DNA of 64,000 nt from an uncultured Bacteroidaceae bacterium (GTDB lineage: Bacteria > Bacteroidota > Bacteroidia > Bacteroidales > JAADGE01), in NCBI GenBank assembly GCA_964472505.1, contig CAYYQW010000002.1:43750-107749 (forward strand), in the 5' to 3' direction. Below are positions 2 to 64,000 of this stretch, one piece after another. Within the stretch, counting starts at the first letter, position 1. The number at the start of each line of letters is the position of its first letter. A program made the translations under genes and the position numbers. The notes under the pieces are model-generated. The model was given only the letters and a program-made list of their open reading frames with translations, had not been told where the DNA came from and did no database searches.

Positions 2-1846
2 GATATTTCTTGTGTAAAATGCCATACGGATGTTACACCGGATCACGAAGAACGCCCGTGCATCAGCGCAGAAAAACCGGATTGTTCCAACTGCCATTCG
101 GATATTTCACAATTTTATTTGGCTTCATCGCACGGAGCTGCCCATTTGGATAATGACCCCAATGCACCATACTGCATTGATTGTCACGGCGGACATGATG
201 TATTGGAAGTTTCCGACTCCGAAGCGAGAGCATATCGCGGAAATATTCCCAAACTTTGCGGCGACTGCCATTCTGATGACACCGAAATGCCCGAAGATAA
301 AACTTCGTACAAAGATTACTCACAAAGTGTGCACGGAAAAGGCTTAACAAGCAAAGGGCTGCTTGTAAGCGCAGTCTGTACCGATTGCCATACCACACAT
401 TTTATTCTTAACTCAGAAGACGAACGTTCGTCAACCAATCATTTCAATGTAGCCACTACCTGTGCAAGCTGCCACAAAGGCATTTATGACGAATATATTA
501 AAAGTCAACATGCTGTTTCAAAAGAAAGTGATAAAAAATATCCGACTTGCGACAATTGCCATACATCGCATACCATTACCGAAATAAGCACTGATGAATT
601 TATGTATGAAATCATGCACCAGTGCCGAGAATGCCATGTGGATTTGGCTGATTCATATTTGGAAACCTACCACGGAAAAGCTTATCTGCTTGGCTCAGAT
701 AATGCCGCTCGTTGCTCCGATTGCCACGGTTCTCACAACATCTACGGAATGGAGCACCCGGAATCAACCGTGCATTTTGATAATATAATTGAAACATGTA
801 AGCAATGCCACACAAACGCCAACGAAAAATTCACGGGATATCTCACACATGCCACTCATTACAACAAAAAGAAATTCCCGGAACTTTATTATACCTATTG
901 GGCAATGACCGGTTTACTGATAGCGGTATTTACCTTTTTCGGAATCCACACCATACTTTGGATTCCTCGTTCAATAAGAGAACGAAGAAAAAACAAAAAA
1001 GCCGGTATTAAGACAAGCGGACGCATTAAATATGTAAAACGATTCGAGAAAGCTCAAATCATCACACACCTTTTTGTTATAATAAGCTTTTTATCATTGG
1101 CCGTTACCGGAATGATTCTAAAATTCGCACACACCGAATGGGCGCAAACCATTGTTAAAATATTCGGAAGTGTGGAAGGCGCCGGTGTTATCCACAGAAT
1201 TGGAGCAACTATTACGTTTGGCTATTTTATTTACCATATCATACATCTAATACAATTACGAAAACGAAAAGGCTTGAGTTTTAAATCATTTTTCTTTGGA
1301 AAAGACTCGCTGGTACCCACCGGAAAAGATTTCAAAGATTTTTGGGCTACCATAAAATGGTTTGTAGGCGCAGGACCGAAACCGGCTTACGGACGCTGGA
1401 CTTATTGGGAAAAATTTGATTATATGGCCGTATTTTGGGGTGTTGCCGTTATTGGTTTCACGGGCTTAATGCTTTGGTTTCCGGAATTTTTCTCTTTGTT
1501 TTTGCCCGGCAAGTTCATCAACATTGCTCAAATCATACACAGCGATGAAGCACTTATGGCCGTAGGTTTTATCTTTACCGTGCATTTTTTCAATACCCAT
1601 TTGCGTCCCGATGCGTTCCCAATGGATACTGTAATTTTTACGGGACACATGCCTTTGGAAAAATTCAAAGAAGAACGTCCGGAAGAATATAAAGAGCTTA
1701 AAGAATCCGGAAAATTAGAAGAACTAACAGAAGAAAAAGAGTTTTCAAAACTCAGGATGCAAGTTATTCGTGCAGCAGGCTTTACTTTTGTAGCCATTGG
1801 GCTTATAACCGTAGCGCTAATAGTTTGGTCGTTGATTGCATTGTAA
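2..1846 (+). CDS. Multiheme c-type cytochrome fused to a membrane b-type cytochrome domain (CbcL-like candidate quinol:cytochrome oxidoreductase). The 5' end lies outside the window.
   Basis: Frame 2 is open from the window edge, so the TTG start at 119 in the ORF track is an artefact; the upstream codons read DISCVKCH...CSNCH. The visible part has ten CXXCH motifs (CVKCH, CSNCH, CIDCH, CGDCH, CTDCH, CASCH, CDNCH, CRECH, CSDCH, CKQCH). These are followed by about 5-6 hydrophobic helices with conserved His residues (ITHLF, VIHRIG, YHIIHL, TVHFFNTHL), as in FdnI/HydC-type cytochromes b. Confidence 0.8.
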   Translation, partial: DISCVKCHTDVTPDHEERPCISAEKPDCSNCHSDISQFYLASSHGAAHLDNDPNAPYCIDCHGGHDVLEVSDSEARAYRGNIPKLCGDCHSDDTEMPEDKTSYKDYSQSVHGKGLTSKGLLVSAVCTDCHTTHFILNSEDERSSTNHFNVATTCASCHKGIYDEYIKSQHAVSKESDKKYPTCDNCHTSHTITEISTDEFMYEIMHQCRECHVDLADSYLETYHGKAYLLGSDNAARCSDCHGSHNIYGMEHPESTVHFDNIIETCKQCHTNANEKFTGYLTHATHYNKKKFPELYYTYWAMTGLLIAVFTFFGIHTILWIPRSIRERRKNKKAGIKTSGRIKYVKRFEKAQIITHLFVIISFLSLAVTGMILKFAHTEWAQTIVKIFGSVEGAGVIHRIGATITFGYFIYHIIHLIQLRKRKGLSFKSFFFGKDSLVPTGKDFKDFWATIKWFVGAGPKPAYGRWTYWEKFDYMAVFWGVAVIGFTGLMLWFPEFFSLFLPGKFINIAQIIHSDEALMAVGFIFTVHFFNTHLRPDAFPMDTVIFTGHMPLEKFKEERPEEYKELKESGKLEELTEEKEFSKLRMQVIRAAGFTFVAIGLITVALIVWSLIAL

Positions 1847-39510: not shown

Positions 39511-39583
39511 GACTCGCTAGCTCAGTCGGTAGAGCAACGGCCTTTTAAGCCGTGGGTCCTGCGTTCGAATCGCAGGCGGGTCA
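39511..39583 (+). tRNA. tRNA-Lys (anticodon UUU)
   Basis: A cloverleaf can be read directly. The acceptor stem GACTCGC/GCGGGTC includes one G-U pair. The D-loop is AGCTCAGTCGGTAGAGC, the anticodon loop is CTTTTAA and the T-arm is GGTTCGAATC-like (GCGTTCGAATCGC). The gene is 73 nt with no encoded CCA. Confidence 0.9.
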
Positions 39584-39586
39584 CTC

Positions 39587-46390: not shown

Positions 46391-46469
46391 GATTATAATA
46401 TTTAAAAAGTGATATATTTTAAGCTTGTATTAGCCCGGTTCGTATGTGAGAAGTTCCTCTAAAAAAAGA

Positions 46470-46569
46470 GGGGCAAGCTACTCACATCGCACCGCTACAA
46501 CCGCCGTACCCTTGCTTCCGTCAAGACCTGGGGGAGTTAGGCAGGAGCTGGTCGTATGAGACTTACCCC
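46470..46569 (-). ncRNA. ffs: Small (4.5S-type) SRP RNA
   Basis: The minus strand reads GGGGTAAGTCTCATACGACCAGCTCCTGCCTAACTCCCCCAGGTCTTGACGGAAGCAAGGGTACGGCGG...GTAGCTTGCCCC. The conserved domain IV core is CCAGGTC..GAC-GGAA-GCAAGGGTA with a GGAA tetraloop. The 5' GGGG..AAG pairs with the 3' CTT..CCCC, and a T-run follows. The ends are approximate. Confidence 0.7.
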
Positions 46570-46575
46570 GGATTG

Positions 46576-49996: not shown

Positions 49997-50728
49997 CTAA
50001 TTATCTATGTTCTCTTTTTCCTTTTTTTGTCGAGCTTCTGTCTTTTTCAACTCATCATCCAATTCATTCAATTCTTTACTTTTGCGTTGATATTCCTGCT
50101 CGTTAATTTCATTCTTTCTGCGTTTTTCTTCAAGCTTACTGCGCGCTTGTTCCACTTTTTGGCGTGCCGAGCTTAATTTTTCTTCTGATTTTTTCATCTT
50201 TTCCTTGGCTTTTCGGCGAGCTTCTTCTGCTCTTTTCTTCCCGTAGTCGCTCTTATCTAATTCGTCATTATCTTTTCCGTCGGTTTTGCCTTTGTCTTTT
50301 TTGTCAGTTTTATCTTTTTTATCGGCTTTGTCTTTTTTATGCTCTTCGTCTTTCTTTTGTTTTTCCTTATCTTGTTTTTCTTTATCTTGTTTGTCTCGTT
50401 TCTCTTTGTCTTGCTTGTCTCGCTTTTCTTTATCTTCTTTATCCCTCTTCTCTTTGTCTTTTTTATCTTGTTTTTCTTTATCTTCTTTATCTTGCTTCTC
50501 TTTTTCGTCTTTATCCGGTTTTAATTTATCATTATCCGGTTTGGGCTTAAGGTCATCCTTTTGCTTGTCTTTGTCGGTAGCATCATTATGCTTTCCTTTT
50601 TTTTCTTTATCATTGGTCTTTCCTTCTTTTTGTTCGGTTTTACCTTTATCGTTAGTTTTTTGGGCATACACCGTATCGGCAAATCCAATAAAAGCAAGAA
50701 CCAATAAAATGCTTATAAGTTTTTTCAT
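49997..50728 (-). CDS. Secreted K/D/E-rich low-complexity repeat protein
   Basis: The protein has a signal peptide (MKKLISILLVLAFIGFADTVYAQ). Tandem octapeptide units follow (DKEKQDKE, DKEKQDKK, DKEKRDKE, DKEKRDKQ x2 ...), encoded at about 50350-50525. The C-terminus is a charged coiled coil. Confidence 0.6.
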   Translation of the reverse strand: MKKLISILLVLAFIGFADTVYAQKTNDKGKTEQKEGKTNDKEKKGKHNDATDKDKQKDDLKPKPDNDKLKPDKDEKEKQDKEDKEKQDKKDKEKRDKEDKEKRDKQDKEKRDKQDKEKQDKEKQKKDEEHKKDKADKKDKTDKKDKGKTDGKDNDELDKSDYGKKRAEEARRKAKEKMKKSEEKLSSARQKVEQARSKLEEKRRKNEINEQEYQRKSKELNELDDELKKTEARQKKEKENIDN

Positions 50729-53974: not shown

Positions 53975-54013
53975 TTATTGGCAATTAATCATTATATTTG
54001 CCATAAATTTGAC
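53975..54013 (+). promoter_or_regulatory. Promoter/operator-like motif 1 (TTGGCAAT-N12-TTGCC-A-TAAATTTG) upstream of the AbiEi-like gene
   Basis: The motif contains a TAAATTTG -7 box (54004-54011). It also contains an inverted repeat, TTGGCAA...TTGCCA. A near-identical motif recurs at 54751-54791. Confidence 0.5.
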
Positions 54014-54046
54014 ACAAGCCCAAAAACAAACAAAATCAAAACTAAA

Positions 54047-54754
54047 TTGCAAATAGCAGATTTAAAAGAACATTTCAGAAATAAAAACTATTTTTATACA
54101 TCTGATATTGTTGAATTTTACCGTAAATTAACACCCAATATTCCCAAAACAACCGTTAATTGGCGAGTATATGAACTAATAAATAAAGGTGTTCTTGAGC
54201 GAATGGGACGCGGCAAATTCAAGTTTGGCGAAACCTTACTTTTTAAGCCTAAAAATACATCGAAAATTATAAAAGTTAATAATCTGATAAAAAAGCAACT
54301 TCCTTTTATAAATTATTGTATATGGACTTCAAATATTATCAATGAGTTTAGTTTGCATATAAACAAGATAAATTATACCATAATTGACACCGAAAGAGAG
54401 GCCTCTAAATCAGTATTATTTTTACTTAAAGATTATTACAAGCATGTTTTCTATAAAGCATCCAAAGAAATGTTTGTTGATTATTTCCCTGATTTAAAGA
54501 ATATTATCATTATCCGGGATTTAGTTACAGAAGCGCCTGTTCAATCAGTCAATAAGATACCGACTGTTACAATTGAAAAATTACTTGTTGATTTATATTG
54601 CGATAGTGAATTTGAATACCTTCAAGGGAATGAATTATCATATATTTATAAGAATGCCTTTGATAAATATACTGTTAATGAAAGCAAATTGTTAAGATAT
54701 GCAAGCCGAAAAGGGAAAAAAGTCGAAATATTAAAATTTATAAACAATCAATAA
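54047..54754 (+). CDS. AbiEi-like putative antitoxin (winged-HTH N-terminus)
   Basis: The gene sits immediately upstream of an AbiEii-type gene. The wHTH-like segment reads TVNWRVYELINKGVLERMGRGKFKF. The start is uncertain: there is no in-frame ATG near the 5' end, and the TTG at 54047 is the first plausible start after the promoter motif. Confidence 0.55.
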   Translation: MQIADLKEHFRNKNYFYTSDIVEFYRKLTPNIPKTTVNWRVYELINKGVLERMGRGKFKFGETLLFKPKNTSKIIKVNNLIKKQLPFINYCIWTSNIINEFSLHINKINYTIIDTEREASKSVLFLLKDYYKHVFYKASKEMFVDYFPDLKNIIIIRDLVTEAPVQSVNKIPTVTIEKLLVDLYCDSEFEYLQGNELSYIYKNAFDKYTVNESKLLRYASRKGKKVEILKFINNQ

Positions 54755-54791
54755 TTTGGCAATACATAAATATAGTTGCCGTAAATTTGTT
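54751..54791 (+). promoter_or_regulatory. Promoter/operator-like motif 2 (TTGGCAAT-N12-TTGCC-G-TAAATTTG) overlapping the antitoxin stop
   Basis: The architecture and spacing match motif 1. The -7 box at 54782-54789 ends 5 nt before the toxin ATG at 54795. Confidence 0.5.
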
Positions 54792-54794
54792 TTT

Positions 54795-55862
54795 ATGATT
54801 TCTGAAAAATGTTTAACAATAGAATGGATTGAGAATATAACTAAAAGGCATAAAGTTAGAGATAAAATATTAGTCGAAAAAGTAATACGTGCATTGTTTC
54901 TTCTTGAAGGACTTGCAGAAGAAGAACTTGATTTCGTTTTTAAAGGCGGAACAGCATTAATGCTTTTGACAGGCAGCACAAAACGATTATCAATAGATAT
55001 TGATATTATTATCCAAAGAAACACCGAATTAAATAATATTCTGTCCAATATTGTATCGCAGAAATACTTTACGGGATTTAAAATACAAAACAGAAAAATA
55101 AGCTCGAATATACAAAAATCACATTTTAAGCTGTATTACAAGCCTGTATTTAGGACAAATAAAACAGAAGAATTTATTTTATTAGATGTTTTATTTGAAA
55201 AGTCTCAATATTTGAATACAACCACAATTCCTGTTCACTCATTATTTGTGAAACAACTTGATGAGCCGGTATATGCAAAAGTCCCTGATTTTAACAATAT
55301 TTTGGGTGATAAACTCACAGCATTTGCACCGGAAACAACTGGAATTCCTTATGAAAAGAACGGTAAAGTTATGGGAAAAGAAATTATAAAGCAACTGTAT
55401 GATATAGGAACAATATTCAAACTAATAGATAATTTGTCCGCTGTAAAACAGACCTTTATCAAATTTGCTTTAACAGAGTTAAAATACAGAAACATTGAAA
55501 ATGATGTTAGTACGGTTTTAACGGATATTTATGAAACATCATTAAGCATAGCAACAAAAGGAAAAGCGGGGAAAGCAAGATTTGATATTTTAAAAACAGG
55601 CTTAAGGCAGATTACAGCATTTATATTTTCTGAAAATTACCATATCGAAAAAGCAATTATTGACGCTTCAAAAGCCGCATATCTGTCAAAGCTTATTCAA
55701 TTAGACAGCAATAAATTTATAAGGTTTGAAAACCCGATGCAAATAACAGATTGGATAATTGAGCAACCATTTTACACAAAATTAAACAAACTTAAAAAAA
55801 CGAATCCTGAAGCTTTCTTTTATTGGTATAAGATATATGAATTAGAAACAATTAACGGATAA
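54795..55862 (+). CDS. AbiEii/AbiGii-family nucleotidyltransferase toxin (type IV TA)
   Basis: The N-terminal NTase signature FKGGTALMLL...RLSIDIDII is characteristic of DUF1814/AbiEii. The start is set at the ATG at 54795. Confidence 0.8.
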   Translation: MISEKCLTIEWIENITKRHKVRDKILVEKVIRALFLLEGLAEEELDFVFKGGTALMLLTGSTKRLSIDIDIIIQRNTELNNILSNIVSQKYFTGFKIQNRKISSNIQKSHFKLYYKPVFRTNKTEEFILLDVLFEKSQYLNTTTIPVHSLFVKQLDEPVYAKVPDFNNILGDKLTAFAPETTGIPYEKNGKVMGKEIIKQLYDIGTIFKLIDNLSAVKQTFIKFALTELKYRNIENDVSTVLTDIYETSLSIATKGKAGKARFDILKTGLRQITAFIFSENYHIEKAIIDASKAAYLSKLIQLDSNKFIRFENPMQITDWIIEQPFYTKLNKLKKTNPEAFFYWYKIYELETING

Positions 55863-59676: not shown

Positions 59677-60007
59677 TGTTATAATATTTATTATTAAAAA
59701 ATGGGATAATTCGAAAGTATATTTCACTTTGTATGCTCCAAATCAGAAACGCAATTTAAGAAAATTTATTATTTATTTCAAGGCTTATTAAACATACGCT
59801 TCATACCCATACAAAAGCTTTCTTTATAACTTTTTTAGCAACTGAAAAATTAGGAATTCATTTTTTTATATGTTTTTGCATGCTTTTTGTGTGGTGATAA
59901 ATTAAAAAAGACTTTACATTTTTTCAAATTAGAAAAAGATTCTTAATTTTGTTAAAATTCAAGTTGCAGCGAAGCAGACTTGATCAGTTGATATAAATTC
60001 TCTTTTT

Positions 60008-60535
60008 ATGAACAGTAAAAAAGAAATGCTCAGTCAAATGGAAACGGATAATATTCGTATTTCTTATACCGGTCCGTTTGATGCTCAGGTACTTTCGGTG
60101 ATGGCAAAGAATATTGAATTCTCATTGTCAAATAATCCCTCGGTAAATAAAAAAATGTTCAAGATATTTTTAGAATTGGCGCAAAACATTTCTTTTTATT
60201 CTATAGAGAAAGATCAATCGGATAAACAGGGAATCGGCACCTTAACCATTAAAGAATATGAAGAGTACTTTCTGTTTGCTACCGGTAATATTATAAATCA
60301 TAAAGATGCCGAAATTGTAATTGAACGATGCGAAAAAATTAACTCATTGGACAGAAACAGCCTGAGAGAATTTAAGCGAAAAGCCAGAAACCGTGCACAC
60401 AGTGCAACCGGCGGAGGAAACATCGGGCTGATACAAGTGGCACTTACCTCCCGAAACAAATTACAATATAAAACCATACCGCTCGAAAAAGGAGAATCCT
60501 ATTATATAGTAGCCGCAAAAATTGATAAAAATTAG
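60008..60535 (+). CDS. SiaB-like GHKL-fold protein kinase, paralog 1
   Basis: The N-box-like motif is FLELAQN and the G2-like motif is GGGNIGLIQVALTS. At 175 aa the size fits. A DUF1987 gene follows the pair of paralogs. Confidence 0.7.
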   Translation: MNSKKEMLSQMETDNIRISYTGPFDAQVLSVMAKNIEFSLSNNPSVNKKMFKIFLELAQNISFYSIEKDQSDKQGIGTLTIKEYEEYFLFATGNIINHKDAEIVIERCEKINSLDRNSLREFKRKARNRAHSATGGGNIGLIQVALTSRNKLQYKTIPLEKGESYYIVAAKIDKN

Positions 60536-60538
60536 ACA

Positions 60539-61087
60539 ATGATAATAAACGATAAGTACAAATTAACTGAAAATCCGCACGACAATGCGGTTCGATTCTT
60601 TTTTAAAGGACCGGTTGATCAGCGTATTTTATCGCTTACCGGTGATTATATAAACACCATAGAAGAAATAGAACGAAACGCCGGCAGAAAATTGTTTAAA
60701 ACATTTCTGGAATTGGCTCAAAATATCTCTTATTACTCGGATGAGACCGTTCAAATTAATGATAAAACAACCGGCGGAGGCACAATCATCATCAAAGAAT
60801 CTGATACCCATTTTTATTTGCTTACGGGGAATACCGTTAAAAACCAAAACATCATACCAATTATTGAAAAATGCGAATACATAAACAGCTTAGACAGAGA
60901 CAGCCTGCGCGAATACAAACGCAAAGAACGCAACCGGCAACCGGGCGTTAAAGGCAATGCCAATATCGGACTCATTCAAGTGGCTCTTACTTCGGCAAAT
61001 GCTCTGGATGTAGAAGTAAATCCCATTGATGAAAATAAAGTCTATTTCTCAATAGTAGTTACCATTGACAAACAAAAAAACAAATAA
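60539..61087 (+). CDS. SiaB-like GHKL-fold protein kinase, paralog 2
   Basis: It shares these motifs with paralog 1: FLELAQNIS, INSLDRxSLRExKRKxRNR and NIGLIQVALTS. The gap to paralog 1 is 3 nt. Confidence 0.7.
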   Translation: MIINDKYKLTENPHDNAVRFFFKGPVDQRILSLTGDYINTIEEIERNAGRKLFKTFLELAQNISYYSDETVQINDKTTGGGTIIIKESDTHFYLLTGNTVKNQNIIPIIEKCEYINSLDRDSLREYKRKERNRQPGVKGNANIGLIQVALTSANALDVEVNPIDENKVYFSIVVTIDKQKNK

Positions 61088-61093
61088 ATCACA

Positions 61094-61480
61094 ATGAAAA
61101 ATCTCGAAATACAAGGTTCACACAAAGATTTTTTTATACCAACCGTAAAATTCAACGCAGATACCGGTATTTGTGAAATAGCCGGAGAATCATTTCTTGA
61201 GGACACCGTAGAATTTTACAAACCCATTATTGCTTGGTTGGAAGAATTTACCGAAACCGAAAAAAAGCCCATCGCTTTAGTTATCAAACTGACTTATTTT
61301 AATACCAGTACTTCCAGAAGTTTACTGGACATTCTCAACGTATTGAAAAATTATGAAGACAATGGAGGCGAGGTAGTAATTAATTGGCATTATGACCCTT
61401 CCGATGTTGATATGGAAGAAGATATTGAAGACTATATGATTGATACCGGACTGGAAATCAATTTAATACCCACAGAATAA
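61094..61480 (+). CDS. DUF1987 (SiaC-like) partner-switch protein
   Basis: The protein is 128 aa. The motifs TPxVxF...G...I.GES.PE-like (IPTVKFNADTGICEIAGESFLED) and LTYFNTSTSRSLLDIL match the DUF1987/SiaC pattern. Confidence 0.7.
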   Translation: MKNLEIQGSHKDFFIPTVKFNADTGICEIAGESFLEDTVEFYKPIIAWLEEFTETEKKPIALVIKLTYFNTSTSRSLLDILNVLKNYEDNGGEVVINWHYDPSDVDMEEDIEDYMIDTGLEINLIPTE

Positions 61481-61488
61481 ACTTCGAC

Positions 61489-61695
61489 ATGGCAAAGAAA
61501 AAATTTAACTATAAACAGTCACTTGAAGAAATTCAAACCATTATAGATGAAATTGAGGAAGACGAAATTGATGTTGACGAGTTATCCGGTAAAATAAAAA
61601 AAGCTTCCGAATTGATAAAAGCATGTAAAACGCAGTTGCGAAAAACCGAAACCGAAATTGAAAATGTACTTTCGGATGATGAAACCGAAAAATAA
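61489..61695 (+). CDS. xseB: Exodeoxyribonuclease VII small subunit
   Basis: The protein is 68 aa and helical. The layout FNYKQSLEEIQTIIDEIE....D.DEL is typical of XseB. Confidence 0.7.
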   Translation: MAKKKFNYKQSLEEIQTIIDEIEEDEIDVDELSGKIKKASELIKACKTQLRKTETEIENVLSDDETEK

Positions 61696-61750
61696 GAAAC
61701 GGTACGGATATTGTATAAAATCTTGCATCAAATAATCACAAACCAATTTT

Positions 61751-64000
61751 ATGAAACGACAGTTGCTCATATTATTTCTGATAATTCCGCTGCTGTCAAC
61801 TGCGCAAACCTATAAAAATGTAAAGTTTACCGGAAGTATCAAAGCCGGCTTTACCGAAGGAGGCAACCAAACCGTCAATGAACTGCTTGCCGAAGAGTTT
61901 GCAAAATTCCTAAATGTAGAACTTGAAAAAACCACCATCGAATGGGGCGATGTATTTGCTAAAAACGGAAAAATCCCTAAAGACTACCAAACAAACCCGG
62001 AAATTGCATACACACCGGATGCTCTGAAAAAATCTGACTTTATTTGCGGAACCGTATATGAACTGGACTGGAGAAAAAAGTTTTTTGATTATGCCGGCAT
62101 TGTTCAAGTTAGCGATTTGCTCATTGTAAGAAAAAATGTAACCAAAAATATTAACAGCATACAAGACTTAAAAGGACTTACCATAGCATTCCTGGAAAAT
62201 TCTACTTATGAAACCGAAATAAATGCCATTAACAAAGAAATAGACAGCGGCATAAACCTGCTGCCGGTAAGTTCTGAAAAGGAAGGATTAAATATTCTTA
62301 CCCAAGGCAAAGCTGACGGACTCATTACGGTTTCATACCTCGCTTTAGCTTACCTTAAAAAATATCAAAGCCTGAAACTGGCATTTCCCGTATCGGAACC
62401 GCAAAACGTGGGCTGGGTTATCCGAAAAAATAATGAAGAGCTAAAACAAGAAATTGAAAATTTCTTTGAAACCATAAAAGGTGACGGCACTTTGAATAAA
62501 ATTTTCAGAGAAAAATACGGTATCTCCTACTCCACTTACCTTGAGATCATAAACTCTTATGCACAATCAACAAAAGGAACCGACAGCCGAGATTTTGACG
62601 CCATAAAAGAATCCGGAAAAATAATCATTGCACTTCGCGACCGCGAAATGATATACCACCGATACGGACAAAAACAGTTCAATCATTATCTGGCCGAAGA
62701 ATTTGCCCAATACTTGGGCTTGCAGCACGAAATAGTCATTACCAAAGAATTTTCAGATTTTTGGGAAAATGAAAACGGAGAAATACTCAAAGACAGCGCA
62801 TACCTGCCCCCGTGGTTTACTCAGTTTGATGTTGCCTGCGATTTAATAGCACCACTTGATTGGCGGCTAAAAAAAGCAGATGTAATAGATTTCATGCCCA
62901 ATGCCATGGTAGTAATCGGGCGAAAAGGAACGAAAATAAATTCCGTTGACGACCTGAGAGGACTGCGCGGAATAACCTCAAGAGGTTCTTCTTACGAACA
63001 CGCCCTCAAACAAAACAACATTAAAGATTTGATATACAGCCAAGGGAATGAATTTTTTAAAAATGTTATTTCCGGAAAAGCTGACTATACCATTTCAAAC
63101 ATTGCCGTATTCAATCTTTCGGAATATCCGGAATTGGAAGCTAAATTTATACTTGGAGAAATAACCCAAATGGGCTGGGCAATTAAGAAAAATCAACCGG
63201 CATTGCGGCAAAAAGTTTTGGAATTTTTTGAATATGCTCAGGAAGGCGGTATTATTGACAATTACTTTAAAGAGCAAACCGGCATGACCATGAAGTCGGC
63301 CAGAAATTATCTGAACGCACTGCAGGAAACCTACCAACACGGATTTTTCCCTTTTATGTTCTACGGCGCCGATCAAGGCTTGCCCCGCGAAGAAATTCTC
63401 AGCCTTTTTCAAGACAATAAAGGTTACATCTGGTTTGGAACCTATTCCGGTGCCGTAAAGTATAACGGCAGGGATATGCGAGTATTTAATAAAGCAAACG
63501 GGCTGAGCGACAATACCGTTTTTGATATCAAACAAGACCAAAACGGGCGTATGTATTTTGCCGGAGAAAACGGCATAAACATTTCCGATGAAAATACGGC
63601 AAACTTTAAATCCGTTTTTAAAGGAACGGTTTTTAAAGAAATTTTCATTGACCAAAATCAAAATAAATTTTTCTACGGAGATGCCGGCGTCTTCATACTC
63701 GACAAGAAGGGCAATAAGATTCATCTCAATAATGAGCTGGATAATATACCCCAAAATGTCCGCAGCATCACTCAGGAACCCAAAGGAGGCGACATTGTAA
63801 TAGCCTCTGCCGAAGGAACATACAGGCTAAACTCTACCCTCTCCGTTTCCGAAAAAATCTCTGACGGCTATTACCATTATGCCCTGTTCAGTTCCGACGG
63901 AAACCTGTGGGTATCTTCAGACGAAGGTTTATTCTTTGTACAAAATAAGCACTTTACAAAACCCGATCGTTACGAAAACTTAAATCACACTCTAAATATT
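61751..64000 (+). CDS. Large periplasmic sensor: two SBP_bac_3-like solute-binding domains followed by regulator-propeller repeats. The 3' end lies outside the window.
   Basis: My own translation from the ATG at 61751 is open to the window edge (750 codons). The ORF track omits it because it has no stop codon. The protein has a signal peptide (MKRQLLILFLIIPLLSTAQ) and two periplasmic-binding-like halves (GKADGLITVSYLAL, SGKADYTISNIAVF). Repeats follow of the type GYIWFGTYSGAVKYNG, NGRMYFAGENGI and DGNLWVSSDEGLFF. Confidence 0.8.
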   Translation, partial: MKRQLLILFLIIPLLSTAQTYKNVKFTGSIKAGFTEGGNQTVNELLAEEFAKFLNVELEKTTIEWGDVFAKNGKIPKDYQTNPEIAYTPDALKKSDFICGTVYELDWRKKFFDYAGIVQVSDLLIVRKNVTKNINSIQDLKGLTIAFLENSTYETEINAINKEIDSGINLLPVSSEKEGLNILTQGKADGLITVSYLALAYLKKYQSLKLAFPVSEPQNVGWVIRKNNEELKQEIENFFETIKGDGTLNKIFREKYGISYSTYLEIINSYAQSTKGTDSRDFDAIKESGKIIIALRDREMIYHRYGQKQFNHYLAEEFAQYLGLQHEIVITKEFSDFWENENGEILKDSAYLPPWFTQFDVACDLIAPLDWRLKKADVIDFMPNAMVVIGRKGTKINSVDDLRGLRGITSRGSSYEHALKQNNIKDLIYSQGNEFFKNVISGKADYTISNIAVFNLSEYPELEAKFILGEITQMGWAIKKNQPALRQKVLEFFEYAQEGGIIDNYFKEQTGMTMKSARNYLNALQETYQHGFFPFMFYGADQGLPREEILSLFQDNKGYIWFGTYSGAVKYNGRDMRVFNKANGLSDNTVFDIKQDQNGRMYFAGENGINISDENTANFKSVFKGTVFKEIFIDQNQNKFFYGDAGVFILDKKGNKIHLNNELDNIPQNVRSITQEPKGGDIVIASAEGTYRLNSTLSVSEKISDGYYHYALFSSDGNLWVSSDEGLFFVQNKHFTKPDRYENLNHTLNI

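Follow-up and report, generated by a model that had tools for sequence, protein, structure and literature searches.

The window, that is the whole 64,000-nucleotide (nt) stretch analysed here, taken from contig CAYYQW010000002.1 of an uncultured Bacteroidales bacterium, ends in a tightly packed cluster of genes that encode relatives of the Sia proteins of Pseudomonas aeruginosa. The cluster consists of two SiaB-family kinase genes, a gene for a SiaC-like protein of the DUF1987 family, xseB, and the first part of a gene for a SiaA-like sensor phosphatase. It probably encodes a SiaABC-type Ser/Thr partner-switch module, the effector of which would be not a co-encoded cyclase but a product encoded elsewhere in the genome.

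We applied open reading frame (ORF) listing and profile searches against Pfam and NCBIfam to positions 60008-64000, with the results collected in Table 1. The gaps between successive genes are 3, 6, 8 and 55 nt, and the ORF listing confirms the layout given in a preliminary description made from the letters of this DNA, in which four packed genes were followed by a long ORF still open at the window edge. Upstream, a Bacteroidetes-type -7 motif, TAATTTTG, at 59944-59951 is the sole plus-strand match to TAnnTTTG in 59728-64000. As the window has hardly more copies of this pattern than chance predicts (104 where 87 are expected, a marginal enrichment), the motif is weak evidence for a promoter. 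A scan of the operon for sigma-70 promoters and intrinsic terminators, the model of which does not cover Bacteroidetes promoters, counted about as many signals as would arise at random (24 for 21 expected, and 10 for 8), and it gave no plus-strand terminator signal above chance there. Nor did an Rfam scan of the window place any RNA element inside or near the operon. On the identical contig described below, the genes downstream of the sensor gene are unrelated and convergent, and the operon stops after the sensor gene. That siaB1, siaB2, siaC, xseB and the siaA-like gene are five genes of one predicted operon is part of the best explanation of the locus.

Table 1. Features of the Sia-like cluster, given as window positions or, for the distal part of the sensor, as residues of the full-length protein (aa, amino acids).
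Feature	Position	Strand	Description and basis
Upstream intergenic region, putative operon promoter	59728..60007	+	280 nt, AT-rich; divergent DUF1573 gene on other side
siaB1	60008-60535	+	175 aa; ORF listing, Pfam/NCBIfam
siaB2	60539-61087	+	182 aa; ORF listing, Pfam/NCBIfam
siaC-like (DUF1987/SiaC family)	61094-61480	+	128 aa; Pfam, PDB match, AlphaFold2 model
Predicted phospho-acceptor T71 of SiaC-like protein	codon 61304-61306	+	motif YFNTST, alignment to P. aeruginosa SiaC T68
xseB, exodeoxyribonuclease VII small subunit	61489-61695	+	68 aa; Pfam, TIGR01280
siaA-like sensor phosphatase, first 750 codons	61751-64000, open at window edge	+	Pfam, identical contig
Sensor: signal peptide	61751-61807	+	hydropathy
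Sensor: solute-binding domain 1 (SBP_bac_3)	~61823-62521	+	Pfam
Sensor: solute-binding domain 2	~62561-63331	+	aa 271-527, MltF N-terminal model (NCBIfam)
Sensor: beta-propeller start (Reg_prop)	63377	+	Pfam
Sensor: Y_Y_Y	aa 1166-1227		Pfam on full protein
Sensor: single transmembrane helix	aa ~1233-1253		hydropathy
Sensor: coiled coil, then SpoIIE/PP2C	SpoIIE/PP2C aa 1362-1564		SpoIIE 2.1e-19, Pfam

Components of the predicted switch

SiaB1 and SiaB2 are 43% identical, and the blocks FLELAQNIS, INSLDRxSLRE and NIGLIQVALTS, by which they had been recognised as paralogues, are present in both. Each matches Pfam DUF6272 (1.3e-29 for SiaB1 and 3.6e-31 for SiaB2; 103 and 108 bits against a cutoff of 26.6), and with the NCBIfam model of the SiaB family protein kinase (NF038262, cutoff 85) they score 120.3 and 124.4 bits, which bears out their proposed place in that family. 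The sole significant PDB match of both is P. aeruginosa SiaB (PaSiaB, 6kko_A; 7e-10 and 3.8e-10, respectively). The N-box, with E56 and N60 in the ELAQN of SiaB1 and E58 and N62 in SiaB2, aligns with IEMTQN of PaSiaB. The Glu of ELAxN, kept in both of the kinase clades described below, falls on E61, the predicted catalytic residue of PaSiaB (PMC7647112). GN and (G)xIGL are likewise kept, at a level of at least 90% in each clade. The lid-like segment reads GGGNIGL in SiaB1 and GNANIGL in SiaB2; the B1 clade retains G-G/T-G-N-I-G-L, and the lid glycines of the B2 clade are more variable. We considered whether SiaB2 is a pseudokinase, a question that its sequence, with N-box and IGL kept and the lid variable, does not decide.

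The two proteins are predicted to be small Ser/Thr protein kinases acting on the Thr of SiaC, and both would act on the single SiaC of the locus. Natural fusions lend indirect support to phosphorylation of SiaC by SiaB-family kinases: when 1.84 billion representatives were searched with a profile, 4301 DUF1987 clusters came up, and among the best 150 of these are five in-frame SiaB-SiaC fusion proteins (DUF6272 plus SiaC, 311-334 residues; P0174, P0197, P0230, P0256 and P0284). The same best 150 include several tandem SiaC-SiaC proteins of ~255-270 residues and no DUF1987 domain fused to an output domain, the fusions being of the SiaB-SiaC and SiaC-SiaC kinds only. One further protein, P0193, is a SiaC with a 110-residue C-terminal extension that has no family assignment.

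The SiaC-like protein matches Pfam SiaC (PF09345; 1.1e-38, 132 bits against a cutoff of 24.5), in keeping with its earlier assignment to DUF1987, and its sole PDB match is P. aeruginosa SiaC (PaSiaC; 6e-15). The ungapped alignment sets T71 on the phosphosite T68 of PaSiaC, within the very segment, LTYFNTSTSRS, that had been put forward as the phosphorylation region by analogy. The whole triad N70/T71/S72, which is invariant in 23 homologues, aligns with N67/T68/S69 of PaSiaC, a triad needed for SiaD binding (PMC8457831). We built an AlphaFold2 model from the alignment of the 23 homologues (predicted local distance difference test score 90.5) and compared it with known structures using Foldseek. 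It matches 6kko_C, 6kkp and 6k4f with TM-scores of 0.83-0.86 (0.86 to 6kko_C), the next structural neighbour being RsbV in the RsbV/RsbW complex. In the model, T71 stands at the N-terminal start of helix 71-89 (alpha-2). The alpha-3 helix forms a near-invariant acidic segment, D-x-D-M-E-E-D-I-E-D-Y, in the alignment of homologues.

A SiaC-like protein of identical sequence occurs on metagenome contigs (JGI 3300012009 and 3300012002, and ENA microbial-mat project PRJEB25599), and the 750 N-terminal sensor residues encoded in the window are identical to those of L001:9664-14361. On this identical contig the full sensor has 1565 residues, its gene ending at the window-equivalent position 66448. 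The two solute-binding domains and propeller repeats that had been read from the open ORF are recovered by SBP_bac_3, MltF-type and Reg_prop profiles, and the transmembrane helix and PP2C/SpoIIE end that had been conjectured to lie off the window are both found on the identical contig. A PDB search with the C-terminal 336 residues gave one match only, SiaA's PP2C domain (6k4e, 5.3e-32). The sensor shares GDFY, DCTGHGVPGA, SDG and DDI with SiaA letter for letter and lacks none of the metal-binding Asp/Gly motifs, and its catalytic motifs correspond to the SiaA active-site residues D457, D474, G477, D600, G601 and D653 (Poh et al., PMC7647112).

Given the signal peptide and the one transmembrane helix, ~1200 residues of the sensor are expected to be periplasmic, with the coiled coil and PP2C domain in the cytoplasm. 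The region is as elaborate as the preliminary description had held: it combines two solute-binding domains, propellers and Y_Y_Y ahead of one transmembrane helix and a coiled coil, whereas SiaA has two transmembrane helices and a HAMP domain (PMC7647112), and no HAMP domain was found in the full 1565-residue protein. The sensor is thus a candidate receptor for a periplasmic ligand. Its Reg_prop propeller/Y_Y_Y module in front of a single transmembrane helix is shared with Bacteroides hybrid two-component sensors, and homologous modules are elsewhere joined to HisKA/HATPase. It differs from those proteins in that two SBP_bac_3 domains precede the module and in that a PP2C domain takes the place of histidine kinase, receiver and AraC output. 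Four proteins of 860-970 residues on long contigs (P0128, P0129, P0130 and P0134) are ~40% identical to the dual solute-binding/propeller region, carry no Y_Y_Y or SpoIIE annotation, and may be stand-alone versions of this periplasmic sensor module.

Conservation and variation among related loci

Scanning species-representative genomes with an alignment of SiaC gave 80 loci, almost all of them from metagenome-assembled genomes (MAGs) of Bacteroidales/Bacteroidota. Their ORFs were labelled by BLAST, and an all-against-all ORF clustering took in 81 loci (L001 and L006-L085). The cluster is kept across Bacteroidales/Bacteroidota, which answers the call in the preliminary description for a survey of the neighbourhood. 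Broad recurrence among the 80 loci is confined to SiaC (80), SiaB (74), PP2C proteins (56) and XseB (19), and the recurrence of this gene set is far beyond chance.

The number of components varies from locus to locus, with one to three kinases, one to three SiaCs, and PP2C proteins bearing diverse sensory domains. In the layout of the window (type A), the order is B1-B2-C-XseB-sensor, the sensor having ~1560 residues. Type B loci have the order B1-C'-B2-C-(TPR-PP2C)-sensor-XseB, again with a 1560-residue sensor, and in type C, found mainly in rumen and gut MAGs, a divergent PP2C gene is followed by B1-C'-B2-C-C''. There are also simpler arrangements, B-C and B-C-C. Inputs to the PP2C domain include TPR, PAS, YfiR-like plus PAS, and propeller/Y_Y_Y domains, or a receiver downstream of a TPR histidine kinase. 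The type A relative at L008:10633-17319 presents a case of the last kind: the giant sensor is replaced by HTH/transposase-like fragments, a TPR histidine kinase, a stand-alone receiver and a receiver-PP2C protein, so that the SiaB-SiaB-SiaC-XseB core appears to be fed by a two-component relay.

Fifty loci have at least 2.5 kb of sequence on both sides. At least two SiaB genes are present in 31 of these well-flanked loci and at least two SiaC genes in 27, and a PP2C gene lies within 10 kb in 41. The kinase duplication, previously listed among the traits that set this locus apart, is therefore real here and not peculiar to it. In neighbour-joining trees SiaB1 belongs to the B1 and SiaB2 to the B2 clade, both of them old paralogue clades, and a B2 gene always lies directly upstream of the main SiaC in related loci. 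Read from sequence, the duplication is ancient and the norm in this clade. The SiaCs fall into three position-specific clades, of which the window has the main one only, and all classes keep YFNTS together with the acidic alpha-3.

Among type A loci, median identity to the window is 70% for SiaC, 55% for the sensor, 49% for SiaB2, 48% for XseB and 46% for SiaB1. SiaC is the most conserved component, which fits a hub that docks several partners.

We also looked for partners among the neighbouring genes and rejected the families that came up. These families, such as esterase, FtsX/MacB, CitMHS, DUF481, SSB, CorC, MFS, DUF364, NTPase, thioredoxin-like type IX secretion system and AA_permease-AAA giant proteins, all represent lineage-specific synteny, and none of them extends over the different cluster architectures. 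The AA_permease-AAA giant, a protein of ~1750 residues with an N-terminal amino-acid permease and a C-terminal AAA ATPase region (L007:2011-7278(-); also in L011, L053, L054, L055 and L060), is encoded near the Sia cluster, at a distance of 1.5-4 kb, in six loci that represent two architectures; the window does not contain it. Type B loci in addition carry a distant DUF1987 paralogue of 109 residues with the motif FEHLNTHST (L055:19983-20312(-); also in L053, L054, L059 and L070). Its gene lies directly upstream of one for a 670-residue protein (L055:17932-19944(-)), convergent to xseB, and neither gene occurs in the window. The 670-residue protein combines pentapeptide repeats with the K+-channel pore motif TIGYGD (Pfam Pentapeptide_3 and Ion_trans_2) and may be a DUF1987-regulated ion channel.

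Output of the proposed switch and alternative readings

In the SiaABC-type switch that we propose, a ligand would be bound by the periplasmic region with its two amino-acid-type solute-binding domains, beta-propellers and Y_Y_Y, and the signal would pass through one transmembrane helix and the coiled-coil stalk to the cytoplasmic PP2C domain. This domain would dephosphorylate the SiaC-like protein at T71, both SiaB-family kinases would re-phosphorylate it, and unphosphorylated SiaC would bind and regulate an effector through its alpha-2/alpha-3 face. We infer both the direction of signal flow and that SiaC, not a kinase, carries the output. The reading is supported by the homology of the components, the catalytic and phosphosite motifs, the topology of the sensor, the packing of the genes and their conservation across genomes.

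The closest known system is SiaABCD of P. aeruginosa (PA0172-PA0169), which likewise pairs a PP2C phosphatase, SiaA, with a GHKL-like kinase, SiaB, and a DUF1987 protein, SiaC, that has its phospho-Thr at the N-terminus of alpha-2. When the components of the locus are compared with the PDB, each finds its Sia counterpart as the best match or the only one. The two systems differ in the number of kinases (two here, one in P. aeruginosa), in gene order (B-B-C-(xseB)-A against A-B-C-D) and in the alpha-3 surface of SiaC, which is invariantly acidic here. The greatest difference concerns the output. As the preliminary description had noted for the window itself, no ORF with GG[DE]EF is found there, and none occurs in the 10 kb downstream of the locus or within ±10 kb of the 80 related loci. 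Because the defining cyclase (SiaD/GGDEF) is absent from the operon and its surroundings, the locus is not a SiaABCD system. In the literature we searched, SiaABC has been studied only in P. aeruginosa, and activating the cyclase SiaD is the one function known for it there; DUF1987 is mentioned only for that species, as a widespread domain that probably regulates adjacent proteins; and nothing was found on partner switches of SiaABC type in Bacteroidota. The components can be named by current automatic annotation, and what is new is the wiring and the absent cyclase output rather than the parts.

Several points weigh against a working SiaABC-type switch, the missing cyclase among them. The P. 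aeruginosa equivalog models of NCBIfam (NF038264 and NF038265) give sub-cutoff scores, 65.3 and 63.6 bits for SiaB1 and SiaB2 against 225, and 84.2 bits for SiaC against 150, so the SiaB and SiaC proteins here are members of their families and not orthologues of the Pseudomonas proteins. The less conserved glycine-rich lid of the B2 clade makes the kinase activity of SiaB2 less certain. ORF clustering found no conserved extra gene family within ±10 kb of the 80 loci. Residues of PaSiaC that contact SiaD are replaced, D79 by N82, R103 by D106 and L107 by D110. Together with the conserved acidic alpha-3, these replacements suggest a different yet conserved partner surface. Finally, for the Bacteroidota members the switch biochemistry of all components is predicted from homology.

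A bolder version of our reading, quite possible although we hold it only tentatively, is that in Bacteroidales the SiaB/SiaC core serves as a hub independent of cyclic di-GMP (c-di-GMP), in which one to three SiaC paralogues receive the signals of many different PP2C sensors and of as many as three kinases. The acidic face would then control an unlinked conserved effector, or the readout would run through a sequestering SiaB paralogue. If true, DUF1987 partner switches would gain a new class of output, and gut and rumen Bacteroidales belong to the order in which it occurs. The core of kinase, phosphoprotein and phosphatase is in any case common among Bacteroidales, MAGs from rumen and gut included, with no linked cyclase, with expanded kinase and SiaC sets and with interchangeable sensor inputs. 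The target-contact surface of SiaC is almost invariant yet unlike that of Pseudomonas, and the locus points to an uncharacterised regulatory output.

Could the output still be c-di-GMP, made by an unlinked SiaD-like GGDEF cyclase with a coiled-coil stalk, the SiaABCD system having merely been split? We consider this unlikely. In its favour, SiaA, SiaB and SiaC each have a homologue at this locus, and the SiaD-binding triad is invariant here. However, the alpha-2/alpha-3 residues that contact SiaD differ, and the lack of any GG[DE]EF ORF extends to the ±10 kb around all the loci compared. To our knowledge, moreover, Bacteroidales genomes carry few or no GGDEF proteins. Other known switches in which the unphosphorylated antagonist regulates an enzyme and not a sigma factor are HptB-HsbR-HsbA-HsbD of P. 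aeruginosa and BgrSTUWV-BgrR of Sinorhizobium (PMC8457831). Some related loci resemble them in feeding PP2C through a histidine kinase and receivers, as in L008, but the outputs of those systems are diguanylate cyclases encoded nearby and their antagonists are STAS proteins.

It is also improbable, in our view, that the locus works as an anti-sigma-style switch, in which one SiaB paralogue would sequester an effector (a sigma factor or an enzyme) and release it when unphosphorylated SiaC binds the kinase. The idea draws on the duplication, which would leave one paralogue as a 'pure' kinase and make the other the sequestering partner, and on the existence of two anciently diverged paralogue clades under similar constraint, with the ATP-lid glycines of B2 the more variable; it would also account for the lack of a visible output domain. 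There is a structural relationship between SiaB/SiaC and pairs of the RsbW/RsbV type, RsbV being the next-best structural match of the SiaC model, and SiaB has been called anti-sigma-like (PMC7647112). Yet both clades retain the N-box E/N and the IGL expected of active kinases, and no second SiaB partner is reported in PMC7647112 or PMC8457831. Nor does a sigma factor gene, or any other conserved partner gene, accompany the cluster in any locus. In anti-sigma-type systems, sigma genes are usually co-operonic. The Bacillus systems RsbU/RsbV/RsbW and SpoIIE/SpoIIAA/SpoIIAB do share with this locus the opposition of a PP2C phosphatase and a GHKL kinase over one Ser/Thr of a small alpha/beta antagonist. 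They differ from it in that the antagonist here is a DUF1987 fold variant rather than a canonical STAS domain, in that no sigma factor gene is linked, and in that the phosphatase is a membrane protein that would sense the periplasm.

The xseB gene and other features of the window

The product of xseB matches PF02609 (3.9e-11, 43.3 bits against a cutoff of 24) and TIGR01280 (40.5 against 35). Its place in the packed cluster is as had been described, but its apparent membership of the cluster is that of a hitch-hiking housekeeping gene and not of a part of the switch. No match to xseA was found in the window or the 85 genome loci by tblastn with E. coli XseA. Using a six-sequence XseB alignment as query, a scan of metagenome loci returned 80, in 53 of which xseA lies directly upstream of an xseB relative (40-56% identical); a SiaA-like sensor or SiaC is adjacent in 8, and neither is present in 18. 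One short contig (L106:3-1309; also L102) carries xseA-xseB followed by a propeller-type sensor gene, which hints that the adjacency of xseB and sensor predates the separation of xseB from xseA and represents ancestral synteny. The Sia-linked XseBs form no single separate clade. We accordingly rejected XseB as a dedicated switch paralogue, given also its xseA-adjacent relatives. It is probably an ordinary housekeeping gene kept beside the sensor by synteny, a co-transcribed passenger.

A role for XseB inside the module, for example one in which SiaC would have this helical hairpin as its target or adaptor and periplasmic sensing would be tied to exonuclease VII, is largely refuted by this context and scarcely credible: xseB has siaC 8 nt before it and the sensor gene 55 nt after it, and adjoins the ~1560-residue sensor gene in two gene orders (C-XseB-sensor and sensor-XseB), and PaSiaC does bind a helical coiled coil (PMC8457831), XseB being a small helical protein, but XseBs just as similar stand beside xseA, some 60 of the 80 Sia clusters have no xseB nearby, XseB evolves faster than SiaC, a HEPN/nucleotidyltransferase (HEPN/MNT)-like pair, judged by eye from the translations, fills the xseB slot between siaC and sensor at L023:10465-11210 (+), and a Thr-synthase-like gene is inserted between xseB and the sensor gene in L020.

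Elsewhere in the window, the small signal recognition particle RNA of Bacteroidales (RF04183, 91.6 bits) at 46467-46575 (-) supports a Bacteroidales origin of the DNA, and a tRNA-Lys(TTT) gene lies at 39511-39584 (+). A DUF6577 and AbiEii pair at 53978-55862 (+) represents an AbiE-type toxin-antitoxin or abortive-infection module; it sits in a stretch of low GC content (0.28-0.31 against ~0.39 around it), which suggests a horizontally acquired islet. At 49997-50728 (-) a secreted protein of 243 residues is encoded, made up mostly of K/D/E-rich tandem repeats of the KDKEKQD type (DNA periods 24 and 48), and this repeat gene accounts for an extreme AT skew of -0.51 on the plus strand.

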